A stretch of 64,000 nt of DNA from Enterobacter phage ZX14. The notes beneath the pieces were generated by a model. That model was not told where the DNA came from and ran no database searches. It saw only the letters and a list, made by a program, of their open reading frames with translations. A program made the translations under genes and the position numbers. The DNA is taken from sequence record PP236086.1; one strand, 5' to 3'. Within the stretch, counting starts at the first letter, position 1. Every line of letters begins with the position of its first letter. Below are positions 2,677 to 11,479 of this stretch, piece by piece.

Positions 2677-3606
2677 TCAGTCCTTCTTAAATGGCAGAAT
2701 CATGTGCTGGTTTTTCTTGAAGCGTTCGATGTAATCATTTACGCCAAGCGTTTTATACATATGGACTACTTTATGGTAGTTTTCCCATGCATATTCACGG
2801 AACCAACCACTCGTAATTGACGTACAGACCTTCTCTAGGGCCATCATGAACGAATGTTCTGAAGATACATTCTTGAAGTCATTAGGGACCTGAGAACGTT
2901 CCAGGGCTAACACACAAGTCTCTTCATAGACACCTGCCAGTTTAATAGCTTCAGGTAATGCTTCGAACTTTTCACGACTTGTCATTACTTCAGAACCGTC
3001 TTTCATATAGAAAGTATATGCAGGACGATCCGCCAGAGCTACGGCACGATGGATGCTATCATGGTCCAAAGTGTAAATCGTATCATTAAAGAAAGTATTT
3101 TTGTTTACATCCAGTTTAGGATGATTGTAGTTCAAAGTTTCCTTTTCACGTTCTTTGACGATCAGCTCGAGCTGAGCAGTTAATTTAACGCCTTTATTAC
3201 GAAGGAAACGAATATGTTGCATTGTCTTACGGAAGAATGGGTTGTTCTTCTTATAGCGATGAGAAAGCTTAATAGCCAAGCACATCTCTGGAGTAGCCCA
3301 ATGGAAACCTGAAAGATTATCTTTTTTCAAAAATGTTTGGGCGTATTCAGCCAGCATAATATTAGAACCAGATTTATCAGTCCAGTCGAAAAGATATGCT
3401 TCAAAATATGTTTCGCGGCCATTATGGTGGCATTTAAAAGCACGAACGTTAGGAGTATTAACTTCTACTTCAGCACCCATCATACGGCATTTGAAATCTT
3501 GCCATGCATTAGTTGAGGCAATGAAGTCCCAGTCAGAATTTTTGATATCGTCAGAGCCAATCAAACCATGGTGCTCAAGAGCACGCGAACCGATAACTAA
3601 TAACAT
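2677..3606 (-). CDS. hypothetical protein, putative nucleotidyltransferase-fold (Pol beta superfamily) N-terminus
   Basis: 309 aa. The N-terminus IGSRALEHHGLIGSDDIKNSDWDFI resembles the GS...SDxDh motif of minimal NTases. A GAGGAAAAT SD and an early promoter lie upstream. Confidence 0.5.
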   Translation of the reverse strand: MLLVIGSRALEHHGLIGSDDIKNSDWDFIASTNAWQDFKCRMMGAEVEVNTPNVRAFKCHHNGRETYFEAYLFDWTDKSGSNIMLAEYAQTFLKKDNLSGFHWATPEMCLAIKLSHRYKKNNPFFRKTMQHIRFLRNKGVKLTAQLELIVKEREKETLNYNHPKLDVNKNTFFNDTIYTLDHDSIHRAVALADRPAYTFYMKDGSEVMTSREKFEALPEAIKLAGVYEETCVLALERSQVPNDFKNVSSEHSFMMALEKVCTSITSGWFREYAWENYHKVVHMYKTLGVNDYIERFKKNQHMILPFKKD

Positions 3607-3640: not shown

Positions 3641-3670
3641 ACTATAACATGACCCTAGATGTTTGTAAAC
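3641..3670 (-). promoter_or_regulatory. T4-type early promoter
   Basis: Minus strand reads GTTTAC-N18-TATAGT. The inverted repeat TAGGGTCA/TGACCCTA encloses the -10. Confidence 0.5.
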
Positions 3671-3672
3671 TG

Positions 3673-3903
3673 CTAGATTTCGTAACAATACGTATTGTGC
3701 GTTTCGATGTAATCTTCAAGAGAAGAGCATACTAACGGGTCTGTAGTACCACAGACATCTTCATTATATGGGTCAATGCCACAGTGGGCATCTTCAAATC
3801 GAACACCATAGTCAGACTTTTTATAACTGACACCGAAGATTTGTTTAAACTTCTTACGAGAGATTTTGTGGCACTCTCCATCACCATTAGGATGATACAT
3901 CAT
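3673..3903 (-). CDS. small Cys/His-rich hypothetical protein
   Basis: ORF with a GAGGTAAACGTT SD before the internal Met at 3903. Several Cys residues (CHK..CGID..CGTT..C). Confidence 0.4.
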   Translation of the reverse strand: MMYHPNGDGECHKISRKKFKQIFGVSYKKSDYGVRFEDAHCGIDPYNEDVCGTTDPLVCSSLEDYIETHNTYCYEI

Positions 3904-3913
3904 AACGTTTACC

Positions 3914-4111
3914 TCAACAAGAATAGGATGATGACTGCCAACCATTGATAATCATGGAGTTGCCATCAACTTGAATAGCTTCACCAAGGTCTAACCCAGA
4001 ACGATCATCAAAATAGATATGGACCATTTCGCGCTCATCAGAGGCAACTTGGAACAGGTTTTCAAGGGCTGCTTTAGCCGTACGTACTGCACAATCTAAT
4101 TCACGAGACAT
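3914..4111 (-). CDS. small hypothetical protein, member A of the W-x-SSS-x-x-C C-terminal paralog family
   Basis: 65 aa ending GWQSSSYSC. Its start overlaps the neighbouring gene. Confidence 0.5.
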   Translation of the reverse strand: MSRELDCAVRTAKAALENLFQVASDEREMVHIYFDDRSGLDLGEAIQVDGNSMIINGWQSSSYSC

Positions 4112-4379
4112 TTTGATTTCCTCTACACATTTGAATGAAGGACTCGAGGCTAATCTCGTCCTTGTTTACTTCTGTAAACGGCTCCCATAACACTTTAATA
4201 GGGTTCCAGACCATATCAGGCCAAGTGAATGGGTCTGGTTGTTGACGATGATATACGGCTACTGCACGTCTGATATATTCAGTAACATAAATCGAATGTT
4301 CTACATATGACAAAGAAATGCATGTAGTGCTGTCAGTGCCATCGATTTCAAGGTAACCATCTACTATACGAAGTTTCAT
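4101..4379 (-). CDS. hypothetical protein
   Basis: 92 aa with a strong SD (AAAGGAGGAAATATG) and an early promoter immediately upstream at 4408-4437. Confidence 0.55.
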   Translation of the reverse strand: MKLRIVDGYLEIDGTDSTTCISLSYVEHSIYVTEYIRRAVAVYHRQQPDPFTWPDMVWNPIKVLWEPFTEVNKDEISLESFIQMCRGNQNVS

Positions 4380-4407
4380 ATTTCCTCCTTTATAAACAAG
4401 TACGGGT

Positions 4408-4437
4408 ATCTTATCACTAAGACACCCGTTTGTAAAC
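4408..4437 (-). promoter_or_regulatory. T4-type early promoter
   Basis: Minus strand reads GTTTAC-N18-TAAGAT. The inverted repeat ACGGGTGTC/GATACCCGT encloses the -10. Confidence 0.5.
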
Positions 4438-4439
4438 TG

Positions 4440-4673
4440 CTAGCAATTCTGCATAGAAGAACTATACCAGAAGCCTTGGTCGTGTGGCAGATAGTTTTCT
4501 TCACGAATCCATTTGTATTCGTCCCACTCATCAGAAGATGCTGGGATGTACTGCTCGTTACCGGCCCAGAAGTGTTCACCTGTTGCTTCGGCGATTTCTT
4601 CACCTTTAGAAATCAGAGCAGAAATGCCTTTAGCAATATCATCAACAGTGTTTACGTCAAATTCAAATTTCAT
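4440..4673 (-). CDS. small hypothetical protein, family member B
   Basis: 77 aa ending GFWYSSSMQNC. Confidence 0.5.
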   Translation of the reverse strand: MKFEFDVNTVDDIAKGISALISKGEEIAEATGEHFWAGNEQYIPASSDEWDEYKWIREENYLPHDQGFWYSSSMQNC

Positions 4674-4682
4674 TTTATTTCC

Positions 4683-4913
4683 TTAACAAGAAGAAGGTTG
4701 CCAGATAGAGCCATCAGCTTCTACATGGAATTCGCGGCCAACTTCTTCGCCGTAGCAAGAAGAATTATTCCAGTCATCAAAACGCATACTACCATCATAG
4801 GTATTGAATTCAAAACCGAAAGAATCGGCAGAAGCCAGTTCGCTTACTTTGTTGAACAGAATGGCAAGTTCTTTAGCTGCTTGTTCGAGTTCAATATTAC
4901 CAGATATAGACAT
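4683..4913 (-). CDS. small hypothetical protein, family member C
   Basis: 76 aa ending IWQPSSC. Confidence 0.5.
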   Translation of the reverse strand: MSISGNIELEQAAKELAILFNKVSELASADSFGFEFNTYDGSMRFDDWNNSSCYGEEVGREFHVEADGSIWQPSSC

Positions 4914-4922
4914 AATGTTTCC

Positions 4923-5207
4923 TTAGCATTCCATAGAAGATGATACCCAACCACCTGATTCGAGGCTGGTATAATATGAGTGTTGGTTGACGGTGGCCCA
5001 ATTTGGCTTGCCTTGTTCGGTATAATGCTCAAGTTCCTTTTTCAAGAATCCAGGAGAATAATACGTTCCGCCCATACCATAAGCAGGGGCGATTTCAAAA
5101 CTCAGGTCGTATTTGTCAGCGACTTTCTTTGCTTGATTAATAGCTTCAGAAATGGCCGCTTCAGCAGCAGCCATCGCAAGTTCAGGTTTGTGTTTAGACA
5201 TTAGCAC
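4923..5207 (-). CDS. small hypothetical protein, family member D
   Basis: 94 aa ending GWVSSSMEC. Contains a TYYSPG motif. Confidence 0.5.
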   Translation of the reverse strand: MLMSKHKPELAMAAAEAAISEAINQAKKVADKYDLSFEIAPAYGMGGTYYSPGFLKKELEHYTEQGKPNWATVNQHSYYTSLESGGWVSSSMEC

Positions 5208-5518
5208 ATCTCACTTGAAGAAATCCAGGTACCTTCAACCAGATTACCGTTTTCATCAAGTTCGTAATCGTATTGACGGCATGCGTATTCAATATAGTTA
5301 TCTTCGGCATTAGTGCCTTTAGGATAATAGGTCTCACCATTGCCATAATCGCCACGGCTCATAGAAATACCATATTGGTCCATCAGTTGTTCTGCACGAG
5401 CTTCATCTACAGGTTCTAGAAGAGCTTCAATTGCTTTGCGAGCAGAGGCCGCATCGGTAATCAGAGGGATACGAGTTTCAACAACTTCAAAGGCCTGGTT
5501 TTTCAGTTTCTTACTCAT
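5201..5518 (-). CDS. small hypothetical protein, family member E
   Basis: 105 aa ending TWISSSEMC. Contains an ETYYPKG motif. Confidence 0.5.
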   Translation of the reverse strand: MSKKLKNQAFEVVETRIPLITDAASARKAIEALLEPVDEARAEQLMDQYGISMSRGDYGNGETYYPKGTNAEDNYIEYACRQYDYELDENGNLVEGTWISSSEMC

Positions 5519-9336: not shown

Positions 9337-9410
9337 AGGCGGGTGATGGACTCGAACCATCGCATATCGGGATATGAACCCGACCTTCTACCAACTGAAT
9401 GTAACCCGCA
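9337..9410 (-). tRNA. tRNA-Met (anticodon CAT), initiator-like
   Basis: Hand-folded cloverleaf: T-arm GATGG-TTCGAGT-CCATC and anticodon arm TCGGG-TTCATAT-CCCGA. The anticodon stem has three consecutive G-C pairs and the 1-72 position is unpaired, both initiator hallmarks. CCA is not encoded. Confidence 0.5.
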
Positions 9411-9674
9411 TTTGTCCGGGTCCAGAGAGTACTAATAAGTAGGCTGTAGTAGAACCCATTGACTAGAATCAATGAGGGAACATGAACCTTTAGCCCCGGC
9501 ATTATCTTATGGACTTCAAACTCTTCTCTCTAGACTGCCTCGTATTATTGCGCCCATCTTGCTGTGGCATTAGACCATGAAGCATTACCGAAATCGCCTG
9601 ATTACGTTAATGTCTGGGTGCTATCCAGGGAACAGAGCTTGGACGGCTTTCCATATCGTCATATGGATTTCTGT

Positions 9675-9750
9675 TGGGGTGACCTGTGGGACTTGAACCC
9701 ACGACTACAAGAATCACAATCTTGAATTCTACCAACTGAATTAAGGCCAC
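9675..9750 (-). tRNA. tRNA-His (anticodon GTG)
   Basis: 76-nt cloverleaf: acceptor GTGGCCT/AGGTCAC, D-arm ATTC-AGTTGGTA-GAAT, anticodon loop TTGTGAT, T-arm GTGGG-TTCAAGT-CCCAC. CCA is encoded. Confidence 0.6.
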
Positions 9751-9785
9751 ATCAATATTCACTCGTAAATGAATATTAATTTGGC

Positions 9786-9856
9786 TAGGGTATCAGGACT
9801 CGAACCTGAGCATAATGGGATCAAAACCCACTGCCTTACCAACTTGGCTATACCCT
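9786..9856 (-). tRNA. tRNA-Gln (anticodon TTG)
   Basis: Acceptor AGGGTAT/ATACCCT, anticodon loop TTTTGAT, T-arm CAGG-TTCGAGT-CCTG. Confidence 0.55.
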
Positions 9857-9863
9857 ATTTAAC

Positions 9864-9947
9864 TGGCGGTTAGTGCAGGTATCGATACCTGCCTTGTCCT
9901 AAGACACGGATTAACAGTCCGTCGCTTCCCCTCTCAGCCAACTAACC
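9864..9947 (-). tRNA. atypical tRNA with Asn anticodon GTT but a long (about 13 nt) variable arm and an 8-nt T-loop
   Basis: Perfect 7-bp acceptor GGTTAGT/ACTAACC with G73 and encoded CCA. The anticodon arm ACGGA-CTGTTAA-TCCGT matches E. coli tRNA-Asn. The D-arm is Ser-like (TGGCTGAGAGGGGAAGC), the variable arm is GTCTTAGGACAAG, and the T-arm GCAGG-TATCGATA-CCTGC is palindromic. Confidence 0.45.
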
Positions 9948-9953
9948 GGAATT

Positions 9954-10032
9954 TGGTGGTTGTGCCTGGAATCGAACCAGGGTTCCTAAATTTAACTAAA
10001 GGGCGCTTATGCCTGCTTGGCGCGACACAACC
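9954..10032 (-). tRNA. tRNA-like gene, anticodon probably TAA (Leu) but atypical
   Basis: Acceptor GGTTGTG/CACAACC with A73 and CCA, and T-arm CCTGG-TTCGATT-CCAGG. The D-loop is long (13 nt). The anticodon stem CTTTA/TTAGG has a T-T mismatch and the loop is GTTAAAT. Confidence 0.4.
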
Positions 10033-10038
10033 TGAATT

Positions 10039-10114
10039 TGGTGGGTCTGGATGGACTCGAACCATCGACACCCGCATTAAAAGTGCGGTGCTCTACCAAC
10101 TAAGCTACAAACCC
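10039..10114 (-). tRNA. tRNA-Lys (anticodon TTT)
   Basis: 76-nt cloverleaf: acceptor GGGTTTG/CAGACCC, D-arm GCTT-AGTTGGTA-GAGC, anticodon arm CCGCA-CTTTTAA-TGCGG, T-arm GATGG-TTCGAGT-CCATC. CCA is encoded. Confidence 0.65.
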
Positions 10115-10196
10115 ATATTACTGTTCTTTAGTCGAGCCGACTTGTCCGTATTCTTTCAACGGTGAGCTGATAGCTGTAACAGTAATACTCTAAATT

Positions 10197-10284
10197 TGGT
10201 GGGGAGTGATGGAGTCGAACCACCCGAGTCGCAATGACAACAGATTTACAGTCTGCACCGCTACCTCTACGGAATTAACTCCCC
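10197..10284 (-). tRNA. tRNA-Tyr (anticodon GTA), class II with long variable arm
   Basis: Acceptor GGGGAGT/ACTCCCC with A73 and CCA, anticodon loop CTGTAAA, long variable arm, T-loop TTCGACT. Confidence 0.55.
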
Positions 10285-10297
10285 GTGATACTTTTAT

Positions 10298-10540
10298 TTA
10301 TTCAGTATATCTCTTGAACTGTAAAGCAAAATCTTCATCAACCTTAGTCAAGAAGTGTCCTGCCTTAAATCGTTTAGAGCTACCTTCAACTTCTACACCG
10401 TAACCGTTCTTACCAAGGACTCGACCAACTCGCATTTCACCAGGGTCACCCATTGAATTACAACGAACACCATATAGAACAAAATCATTTTCGAACACCG
10501 GAGTTTGTTTCCGATCTTTAATTAATTCTATCATATTCAC
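10298..10540 (-). CDS. hypothetical protein (80 aa) embedded in the tRNA cluster
   Basis: ORF abutting the NADAR gene (ATGA overlap). Confidence 0.45.
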   Translation of the reverse strand: MNMIELIKDRKQTPVFENDFVLYGVRCNSMGDPGEMRVGRVLGKNGYGVEVEGSSKRFKAGHFLTKVDEDFALQFKRYTE

Positions 10541-10541
10541 C

Positions 10542-10997
10542 TTAAAGCATATTACGTTTTAAGTTTTCACGAACTCGATAAAGGTTTGAACAGAATTCCT
10601 GTTCGGTTAGAACGGTTTCATTCTTTTTCGACTTGCCCATCGAGTGAGTTAATGTAGAGTTCTGTGTAGCCAGAAGTGCTCTCTTGAACCCTTCATTACG
10701 TCCTAATTCATTATATGCACGTTCAATAAGAAGTCTGTAGGCGTCACTCTGACGTTGCATAGGCACACCTTTCCAGTACAGGGTTTGAGTACGCCACCAC
10801 TTCTTTTTCTTACCTTTGAACTTAGCTGCTTTACCAACTAGAGTACAAACATGTTCTTGCATTTCGACTGAACTAAATTTCAGTGATTGCAAAAATCCTT
10901 CCATCGAAGCACATTCTACACCATCAATTGTAAAAGCATGAGGTGCAAAATTACTTAATGCAGATGAAGGATAACCTGAACCTGAACCAATATCCAT
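10542..10997 (-). CDS. NADAR / YbiA-like (DUF1768) domain protein
   Basis: 151 aa with SNFAPHAF...GVECASMEGFLQSLKF...KFKGKKKK...YWKGV...RLLIERAYNELG...LLAT, matching the NADAR signature pattern (FSNF..H.F.....Y.S.E...Q..KF). Confidence 0.5.
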   Translation of the reverse strand: MDIGSGSGYPSSALSNFAPHAFTIDGVECASMEGFLQSLKFSSVEMQEHVCTLVGKAAKFKGKKKKWWRTQTLYWKGVPMQRQSDAYRLLIERAYNELGRNEGFKRALLATQNSTLTHSMGKSKKNETVLTEQEFCSNLYRVRENLKRNML

Positions 10998-11209
10998 TAT
11001 TCATTTTCCTTTTCAAGAAGGAACATATACATATCGTCATGGTCTTGCATAACGTTTTCAAATTGTGATTCGTATTCAGCCAATGGTGCAGAACCAAGCC
11101 AGTTAGCACATTGAATACGTAAGTCGCCATTAGCGCCTTGATAAATCAAAGCTTCAGAATATCCACCTGAAGCCCATTCGATAATTGCATGTCCTAAACG
11201 ATATTTCAT
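10997..11209 (-). CDS. hypothetical protein (71 aa)
   Basis: Start is taken at MKYRLGH with a GAGGAAAATATA SD. The first Met in the ORF track (11254) would overlap the tRNA-Arg gene. Confidence 0.45.
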   Translation of the reverse strand: MKYRLGHAIIEWASGGYSEALIYQGANGDLRIQCANWLGSAPLAEYESQFENVMQDHDDMYMFLLEKENE

Positions 11210-11227
11210 TATATTTTCCTCAGTGTC

Positions 11228-11304
11228 TGGTGTCCCCTGATGGATTCGAACCATCGACCCACAGCTTAGAAGGCTGTTGCTCTATCCGGCTGAGCTAAGA
11301 GGAC
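11228..11304 (-). tRNA. tRNA-Arg (anticodon TCT)
   Basis: 77-nt cloverleaf: acceptor GTCCTCT/AGGGGAC, D-arm GCTC-AGCCGGATA-GAGC, anticodon arm ACAGC-CTTCTAA-GCTGT, T-arm GATGG-TTCGAAT-CCATC. CCA is encoded. T4 carries an Arg(UCU) tRNA at the equivalent position. Confidence 0.7.
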
Positions 11305-11308
11305 GAAA

Positions 11309-11385
11309 TGGTGGCCCTTCTGGGAGTCTAACCCAGCTTACACCGGTTATGAGCCGGGTACTTTCACGCGACAGTACAAAGGGCC
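11309..11385 (-). tRNA. tRNA with CAT anticodon (Ile2-lysidine type or elongator Met)
   Basis: Perfect acceptor GGCCCTT/AAGGGCC with CCA, D-arm TACT/AGTA, anticodon loop CTCATAA. The T-arm is CTGGG-TTAGACT-CCCAG, i.e. an unusual A56. Confidence 0.5.
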
Positions 11386-11394
11386 TGAATAATT

Positions 11395-11479
11395 TGGTGC
11401 ACCGAGTGGGACTTGAACCCACAATCCATAAGGCGTATCATTTTAAGTGATATATGTATACCAATTCCATCATCGGTGC
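11395..11479 (-). tRNA. tRNA-Leu (anticodon TAA), class II
   Basis: Acceptor GCACCGA/TCGGTGC with A73 and CCA, anticodon arm TATCA-CTTAAAA-TGATA, long variable arm, T-arm GTGGG-TTCAAGT-CCCAC. T4 tRNA-Leu likewise carries UAA. Confidence 0.6.

Follow-up and report, generated by a model that had tools for sequence, protein, structure and literature searches.

Five small open reading frames (ORFs) on the minus strand of Enterobacter phage ZX14, at positions 3914 to 5518 of a 64,000-nucleotide (nt) stretch of record PP236086.1 (hereafter the window), end with the same type of Trp-Ser-Ser-Ser-Cys tail, and we found that the protein family to which they belong is tightly linked to one conserved gene for a predicted nucleotidyltransferase. 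Previously, the small family was known only as PHROGs of unknown function and the enzyme only as two domains of unknown function (DUFs); the linkage between them is the new result reported here. The enzyme gene is a concrete candidate for the reader of the tail. We propose, with a probability of about one half, that the small proteins partner the enzyme functionally and that the tail is what the enzyme recognises, in which case the array and the adjacent gene would form a two-part module confined to phages. The genes on which the proposal is built are given below, with lengths in amino acids (aa) and isoelectric points (pI).

5201-5518, minus strand: member 1 of the tail family, 105 aa, pI 4.32, ending EGTWISSSEMC (phrog_899, E 1e-16)
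4923-5201, minus strand: member 2, 92 aa from an ATG (94 aa from an upstream GTG), ending GGWVSSSMEC (phrog_899, E 6e-18)
4683-4913, minus strand: member 3, 76 aa, pI 4.07, ending SIWQPSSC (phrog_899, E 7e-8)
4440-4673, minus strand: member 4, 77 aa, pI 4.20, ending GFWYSSSMQNC (phrog_899, E 4e-11)
3914-4111, minus strand: member 5, 65 aa, pI 4.33, ending NGWQSSSYSC (phrog_4882, E 4e-30)
2677-3606, minus strand: enzyme gene, 309 aa (Pfam DUF7277 and DUF7275)

All five tail endings listed in a sequence-only reading of this stretch were found as written and on the minus strand, and the acidity ascribed there to the proteins was borne out (pI 4.07-5.51). The ORFs do form a tandem set, but not a strictly consecutive one as that reading had it, since another ORF (4101-4379) lies between members 4 and 5. 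A Shine-Dalgarno-like sequence is found 5' of every one of the five, and the start of member 2 overlaps the stop of member 1 (TAATG). Member 2, in which the motif YGMGGTYY is present, has homologs in 283 phage records, and member 3 holds a second, internal copy of the tail motif (DWNNSSC...IWQPSSC). A scan of all stop-to-stop ORFs in the window with a length of 30 aa or more (907 in total) found the ending W-x-S-S-S-x(0-3)-C-stop in five, exactly the members of the array.

Among 80 viral loci fetched via the enzyme (39-98% identity to it), 74 carry one to five ORFs with the strict tail. These ORFs account for 198 of the 1801 ORFs located upstream of the enzyme gene and on its strand, and the tail was found in none of the 1899 downstream and none of the 5387 antisense ORFs (0/7286 outside the upstream same-strand region). 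The tail pattern of the array is thus not a product of chance, since only the five array ORFs match among the 907 of the window and none match among these controls. The distance from the last tail ORF to the enzyme gene ranges from 16 to 3377 nt, often with other ORFs in between; in the window the array lies upstream and ends 308 nt from the enzyme gene. In a synteny control, four other neighbours from the window were kept in just 4-11 of the 80 loci, and when the enzymes were clustered (70% single linkage) a strict-tail neighbour was present for 34 of the 43 clusters.

The pair recurs in unrelated phage lineages. Outside Straboviridae it was found in Otagovirus phiPsa374 (four copies of the tail ORF), Phapecoctavirus ukendt (three copies) and the jumbo phage Munch (one copy). 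The same arrangement upstream of a DUF7275 gene was seen, again outside the T4-like phages, in the jumbo Erwinia phage Kaldavass, Munch and Kaldavass being phages of roughly 350 kb, and also in RB69. For four distant members of the small family (P0119, P0128, P0145 and P0230), a DUF7275 gene follows downstream after 0-2 small ORFs. Menderavirus Yut2 has the opposite arrangement, its two tail ORFs lying downstream of the enzyme gene and still next to it.

It could be argued that the small proteins are independent early effectors, acting in anti-defence or host takeover, with a tail that binds to something else, for instance a host protein. Their adjacency to the enzyme gene would then come from nothing more than joint early expression and inherited gene order. 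In favour of this, the array is part of the plastic early region between e and the tRNA genes, its products are small, acidic, tandem-amplified and rearranged between genera, one member (P0223) has no adjacent enzyme gene, and some enzyme homologs come without the tail family. However, the linkage has outlasted the turnover of every other neighbour and has been kept across unrelated phage lineages and through a reversed gene order, and away from the enzyme the strict tail is absent, both from the control ORFs and from the rest of the window. On balance we consider independent effectors unlikely, albeit a serious contender.

The enzyme gene encodes a predicted minimal Pol-beta-type nucleotidyltransferase with a MenT/AbiEii-like and ANT-like fold. 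The AlphaFold2 (AF2) model, with a predicted local distance difference test score (pLDDT) of 90.4, has a nucleotidyltransferase fold, and its closest structural neighbours were MenT1, TglT, ANT(2''), MenT4 and LnuA. ORF 2677-3606 contains the Pol-beta signature, h-G-[GS] followed by D-x-[DE] and a third carboxylate on the core sheet. In alignments of 19 and 28 sequences, residues G6, S7, D25-x-D27 and E69 were invariant, and further invariant positions are K113, H116, R117, H182-D183, H186 and the block KVCTSITSGWFREYAWEN. At E <= 1 only DUF7275 and DUF7277 were matched in Pfam and DUF1814 (AbiEii/MenT) was not, for which reason we term the enzyme MenT/ANT-like in fold and not a DUF1814 member.

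Few accessory genes of large virulent phages are as well conserved as the enzyme gene, which was found in 732 of 50,697 phage records. Its products fall into more than 2100 clusters at 90% identity, and those of enterobacterial and Aeromonas phages are about 45% identical; almost all deposited names seen for them read 'hypothetical protein'. In 185,579 bacterial and archaeal species genomes the gene was present on five contigs of metagenome-assembled genomes (MAGs) only, and a bacterial origin of the module was rejected on this count. Since tail ORFs are present on four of them, these contigs are probably phage DNA. A full-text literature search found no relevant paper on DUF7275 or DUF7277, and a survey of jumbo phages describes RlaP and CCA-adding nucleotidyltransferases, and not the DUF7275 enzyme. 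Genes for tRNA, RNA ligase, polynucleotide kinase, DNA ligase and a NinI-like phosphatase were seen next to DUF7275 genes (loci L096, L097, L095, L094, L005 and L091). Since the enzyme gene repeatedly adjoins tRNA, RNA ligase, polynucleotide kinase and phosphatase genes, there is a hint that the enzyme may act on RNA (tRNA) ends.

The bodies of the five small proteins had been described as otherwise divergent. This is correct insofar as pairs share only 17-29 identical residues, but the bodies are homologous when profiles without tails are compared. With the last 10 residues removed, hhalign joined groups 1-2 at E 1e-10 and groups 3-5 at E 9e-11, the remaining linking pairs being weak (about 3e-4), and in the alignment an N-terminal helix and a YG-x-G-x-TYY motif are common to the members. 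The bodies are paralogous, and the view that sharing is limited to the tail was wrong.

A word-indexed search of 5.8 billion proteins returned 94 relatives, 91 of which have kept the tail. An exhaustive hidden Markov model (HMM) search of 1.84 billion representatives returned at least 299 clusters (50% identity) at E <= 1e-3, and among the matches listed the tail G-x-W-x-[S/A/P]-S-S-x-x-C is kept in 142 of 145. Recurrence of the motif in homologs, which had been set beforehand as the test of the family, was thus observed in both searches. The relatives found with the HMM are nearly all 65-155 aa long and the profile runs to the last residue; each of the five window ORFs has the length and ending of the family (about 50-170 aa, ending [G/x]-W-x-[S/A/P]-S-[S/T]-x-x-C-COOH). 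The family is confined to phages. Four of the window proteins belong to phrog_899 and one to phrog_4882 (E 1e-8 to 1e-30), and longer tail-bearing relatives fall in phrog_23943; all three are listed as 'unknown function' and, by tail and body homology, they split one superfamily.

Scans of the five proteins against Pfam, NCBIfam and PADLOC gave no match, and no unrelated known family was thus hit by any member. A structure search of BFVD returned uncharacterised members of the same family alone, and no paper describing the small-protein family was found in a full-text literature search. The family was therefore rightly said to be unrecognised, being known solely from the PHROGs entries. One candidate, P0104 (1238 aa), proved to be a surface repeat protein of bacteria and was discarded as a false positive. 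More than one kind of body bears the tail; the N-terminal extensions of 80-100 aa on some members (phrog_23943 and unclassified) showed no domain match.

Conservation at the extreme C-terminus across a diversifying family, as claimed in the sequence-only reading, is evident, with a constraint much above that on the body. The spacing from Trp to Cys is 7 in 210 of 236 members, 209 of these 210 have the second Ser, and Cys is the very last residue in 225 of the 236, so that the Trp, the second Ser and the terminal Cys are essentially invariant (210-236 sequences). The median pI of the 236 proteins is 4.45. Two or more aromatic-x-S-S units are present in 42 of them, e.g. WESSSEGWESSSEGWVSSSSQC, and this repetition of the motif inside single proteins fits a linear unit that is recognised. 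Some members (loci L049, L050, L052 and L079, about 2890-3350) end with GWISSSICW, which has an extra Trp after the Cys. In RB69, RB69ORF139c (L004 4607-4822, 71 aa, ending GDYGSGRTYYPKGEIVSQWYEK) and RB69ORF138c (L004 4812-4913, 33 aa, ending EGAWVSSPALC) overlap by 11 nt and, when joined, give one protein of the member 1 type; they are a split or frameshifted gene, or possibly one that is read through by frameshifting.

The AF2 model of member 1 (pLDDT 73.8 overall, about 90 over the C-terminal half) consists of a helix hairpin and a three-stranded sheet, with the Trp in the last strand, which pairs with the strand ending in TYY. The Trp strand has a pLDDT of about 90 and the last five residues of about 71. 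Because the Trp sits in a confidently modelled strand, the tail is, going by the model, partly structural and not a free tag. Taken to its limit, this would mean that the tail is purely structural, with the Trp strand closing the small fold, the Ser and Cys residues capping it, and no reader at all. While the confident pairing of that strand with the TYY strand speaks for this, Ser and a terminal Cys are rarely irreplaceable for folding and yet are invariant here on bodies with identities down to about 20%. The motif also occurs in tandem internal repeats and on quite different bodies and N-terminal extensions (phrog_23943; members of 139-172 aa), and within the C-terminal half of the model confidence is lowest over the last five residues. 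We consider a purely structural role improbable.

An explanation of the tail at the level of RNA or DNA was rejected. In a scan of the window with Rfam at gathering thresholds the tRNA genes at 9338-11479 were the sole matches, and the tail serines mix TCN and AGY codons (AGY share 20-26% in 100 distinct tails), from which it follows that selection acts on the protein and not on the DNA. The codon usage also speaks against a cis-acting role of the tail, in which it would sense the nascent peptide or the serine codons and control the downstream enzyme gene in the manner of TnaC or an attenuator. A conserved Trp does lie 8 residues ahead of a conserved stop, the tail ORFs are upstream of the gene that would be regulated and on its strand, and there are a terminator-like hairpin and promoter-like sites inside the array. 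However, a leader peptide would be a short ORF (under about 30 aa) directly upstream, and the tail ORFs encode proteins of 65-105 aa with conserved, foldable bodies. Up to five of them occur in series, often with other ORFs and the 16-3377 nt noted above before the enzyme gene, and in Yut2 they are found downstream of it. Such a sensor is very improbable.

Equally improbable is a tail that serves as the core of a ribosomally synthesised and post-translationally modified peptide (RiPP), with a lanthionine or aminovinyl-cysteine (AviCys) ring between Ser and the Cys-COOH or a Trp-Cys crosslink, or as a metal or disulfide site with a dedicated enzyme. Ser-x-x-Cys-COOH is the formal arrangement of C-terminal aminovinyl-cysteine rings, and the terminal Cys is invariant. 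Nevertheless, no gene for a dehydratase, cyclase, (flavin) decarboxylase or radical-SAM enzyme was present among the window neighbours and in some 20 loci with annotation or Pfam labels, the spacing is variable (SSC, SSSxxC, SSSxxxC), and the Cys is absent altogether from divergent partners.

In the mechanism that we favour, the small acidic proteins would be partners of the enzyme, each built of an N-terminal helical hairpin and a short beta-sheet that is closed by the strand with the invariant Trp, after which an exposed S-S-S-x-x-Cys-COOH end would follow. The invariant tail would be the element recognised by the invariant enzyme, and the diverging bodies and the copy number of 1-5 would provide different specificities or doses. 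Two versions can be envisaged. In version (a) the acidic tail would fill the nucleoside triphosphate/RNA cleft of the enzyme as a pseudo-substrate or regulator, as MenA1 does for MenT1, and in version (b) a serine hydroxyl of the tail would accept a nucleotide, as the HEPN partner does from the MNT enzyme. The acidity of the proteins and the upstream position of their genes lean towards a MenA1-like regulator; the motif repeats, and a fold akin to that of O-nucleotidyltransferases, speak slightly for a role as acceptor or in avidity. Five paralogs fit neither a plug nor a substrate in simple form, which suggests that the bodies may confer different specificities.

A phage system for protein nucleotidylylation, in which the DUF7275 enzyme puts one or more nucleotides on a serine of the W-x-S-S-S-x-x-C tail, is a tentative idea that we would not expect to hold. 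The modified small proteins would then be activated, or would become nucleic acid-like decoys, for instance mimics of tRNA ends aimed at RNA-targeting enzymes of host or phage.

Known pairs of a nucleotidyltransferase and a small partner have a similar architecture, from which the module differs by its invariant C-terminal tag, its tandem paralogs and its occurrence in virulent phages only. MenA1, a protein of 68 aa, has its gene upstream of menT1 and obstructs the electropositive active-site face of MenT1 (PMC10435456). As in MenAT1 of M. tuberculosis, with its gene order menA1-menT1, the phage small-protein genes lie immediately upstream and on the same strand. The phage enzyme, unlike MenT1, has no DUF1814 match at E <= 1; it is a protein of 309 aa, in which a long additional helical domain is present, and has invariant motifs of its own. 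Its partners are helix-plus-sheet proteins with an invariant C-terminal tail, whereas MenA1 acts via an N-terminal helix; in place of a single partner there are 1-5, all paralogous; and the phage module is found in virulent phages and not on bacterial chromosomes.

In HEPN-MNT, a type VII toxin-antitoxin system, the gene for a minimal Pol-beta nucleotidyltransferase likewise adjoins a small-protein gene, and the enzyme (oligo)adenylylates the adjacent small protein on a hydroxyl side chain (PMC7641770, PMC11586414); MntA thus adenylylates HepT covalently (PMC7641770). HEPN-MNT is the precedent for a tail serine as acceptor. However, the acceptor in HEPN-MNT is a Tyr in a folded RNase and the putative acceptor here a Ser in a C-terminal tail, and neither a HEPN domain (R-x4-6-H) nor any other Pfam match was found in the small proteins. 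ANT(2'') and LnuA are among the closest folds to the model of the phage enzyme. The substrates of these two enzymes are small molecules, and we know of no partner proteins for them. The internal proteins of T4 are also small and variable, map to plastic T-even loci and share a short conserved terminal tag, in their case for capsid targeting. That tag is N-terminal and is cut by the prohead protease, and the proteins are basic, in contrast to the C-terminal tag and acidic proteins of the tail family.

Several observations weigh against the enzyme-partner proposal. A single regulator would not need five paralogs, and the placement of the Trp in a confident strand of the model means that conservation of the tail may be partly structural. 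Most of the loci come from related myoviruses with all genes in the same direction, so that the raw linkage counts are inflated by inherited synteny. The family member P0223 (locus L105, on a 7-kb contig) is followed by a 342-aa protein, which was considered as an enzyme homolog and rejected as non-homologous. Four related loci (L053, L054, L060 and L074) have the enzyme gene (about 4001-4927) and no tail ORF within 4 kb. Finally, what is shown comprises the family, the constraint on its tail, the gene linkage and the fold and catalytic motifs of the enzyme, whereas a physical interaction, the role of the tail and any chemistry are inferred.

The four loci without a tail ORF are the only long-form DUF7275 clade without a partner and, as a single clade, count as one event. 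In their enzymes the conserved motif reads KICTSITSG(R)FR(T)YAWEN, with the changes W268R and E271T, and a second motif reads Y(Q)HD(D)IH, with D181Q; W268 and E271 are otherwise invariant in the enzyme and D181 is near-invariant. It is possible, judged from these substitutions, that the three positions are the footprint of a partner-binding site. Short-form enzymes of 251-263 aa (L095, L096, L097 and L107), from Streptomyces, Arthrobacter and Gordonia phages and KVP40-like Vibrio phages, also have no tail-family neighbour. They keep the G-S and D-x-D motifs and have KKTITSxxKGW, with Ile replacing the conserved Cys of the KVCTSITSGW motif. In both groups, absence of the partner coincides with altered enzyme residues, a co-variation that speaks for the proposed partnership.

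Several other apparent exceptions turned out to have divergent partners directly upstream of the enzyme gene. These are gp088 of Brevibacillus phage Sundance (L109 2656-2937), which ends with EEEEYSSSYYEEEEYSSSYYEED, a 57-aa ORF of Pseudoalteromonas phage J2-1 (L108 2957-3130), which ends with SWDDSECY and has DEWEDSWDDSECY, and an ORF of a MAG locus (L101 3702-3989) with DWQSSYSWSDSGC and DWQSSYSWSDSGCSYDDSDWN. All three are acidic, have aromatic-Ser-Ser units and a non-canonical ending, and accompany distant long-form enzymes. Their sequences suggest that the core of the recognised unit may be an aromatic residue plus Ser-Ser in an acidic context.

Linking the family to the enzyme turns two unknowns into one testable module with a 9-residue candidate for recognition, and it comes with natural controls, namely the partnerless short-form enzymes and the clade in which the partner and W268/E271 have both been lost. 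Were the tail a substrate, phage biology would gain a protein-nucleotidylylation system, and virulent phages a post-translational modification module of a new kind. Were it an inhibitor, a MenT-like enzyme, possibly one that acts on tRNA ends, would for the first time be seen under antitoxin-like control in a lytic phage. The module has never been studied, probably because T4, over the 125 kb that were scanned (1-76 kb and 120-169 kb), has neither the tail family nor a DUF7275 gene. T4 Tk.1 (L112 11347-11535, minus strand, 62 aa, with DLSFEISSEYGDAETYYELV) matched the family profile marginally (E 0.0026 in a search of 1830 T4 ORFs); its sequence is similar to the body motif, and it has no tail. 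On this similarity it may be a tail-less remote relative, or the match may be due to chance.

The window is 95.5% identical to Enterobacter phage vB_EclM_Q7622 (Kanagawavirus, Tevenvirinae). By synteny, the array lies in the region that extends from the lysozyme and nudE genes on one side to the tRNA cluster on the other, in agreement with the placement between e and the tRNA genes in the sequence-only reading. The remaining features around the array are the following.

9338-11479, minus strand: eight tRNA genes (Rfam scan)
4408-4436, minus strand: promoter-like TTTACA-17-TAAGAT overlapping the hairpin, in the 60-nt gap after member 4
4402-4429, minus strand: terminator-like hairpin (12 bp, T-rich tail) within the 60 nt that separate member 4 from the ORF at 4101-4379
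4101-4379, minus strand: 92-aa ORF without the tail, unrelated and outside the module (phrog_32323; in 4 of 80 related loci)
3673-3903, minus strand: 76-aa ORF with five Cys, between the array and the enzyme gene (phrog_3723; in 11 of 80 loci)
3641-3669, minus strand: promoter-like site TTTACA-17-TATAGT with TG, just 5' of the enzyme gene (consensus match)

In the order of transcription, the cluster of eight tRNA genes precedes e.5/e.6-like genes and the array. The Cys-rich ORF at 3673-3903 is limited to close relatives and is probably not a core part of the module. Promoter-like sites such as the one at 3641-3669 are consensus matches alone, and their number is no higher than expected from shuffled sequence. 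The hairpin and promoter-like pair at 4402-4436 could divide the array into two transcription units.

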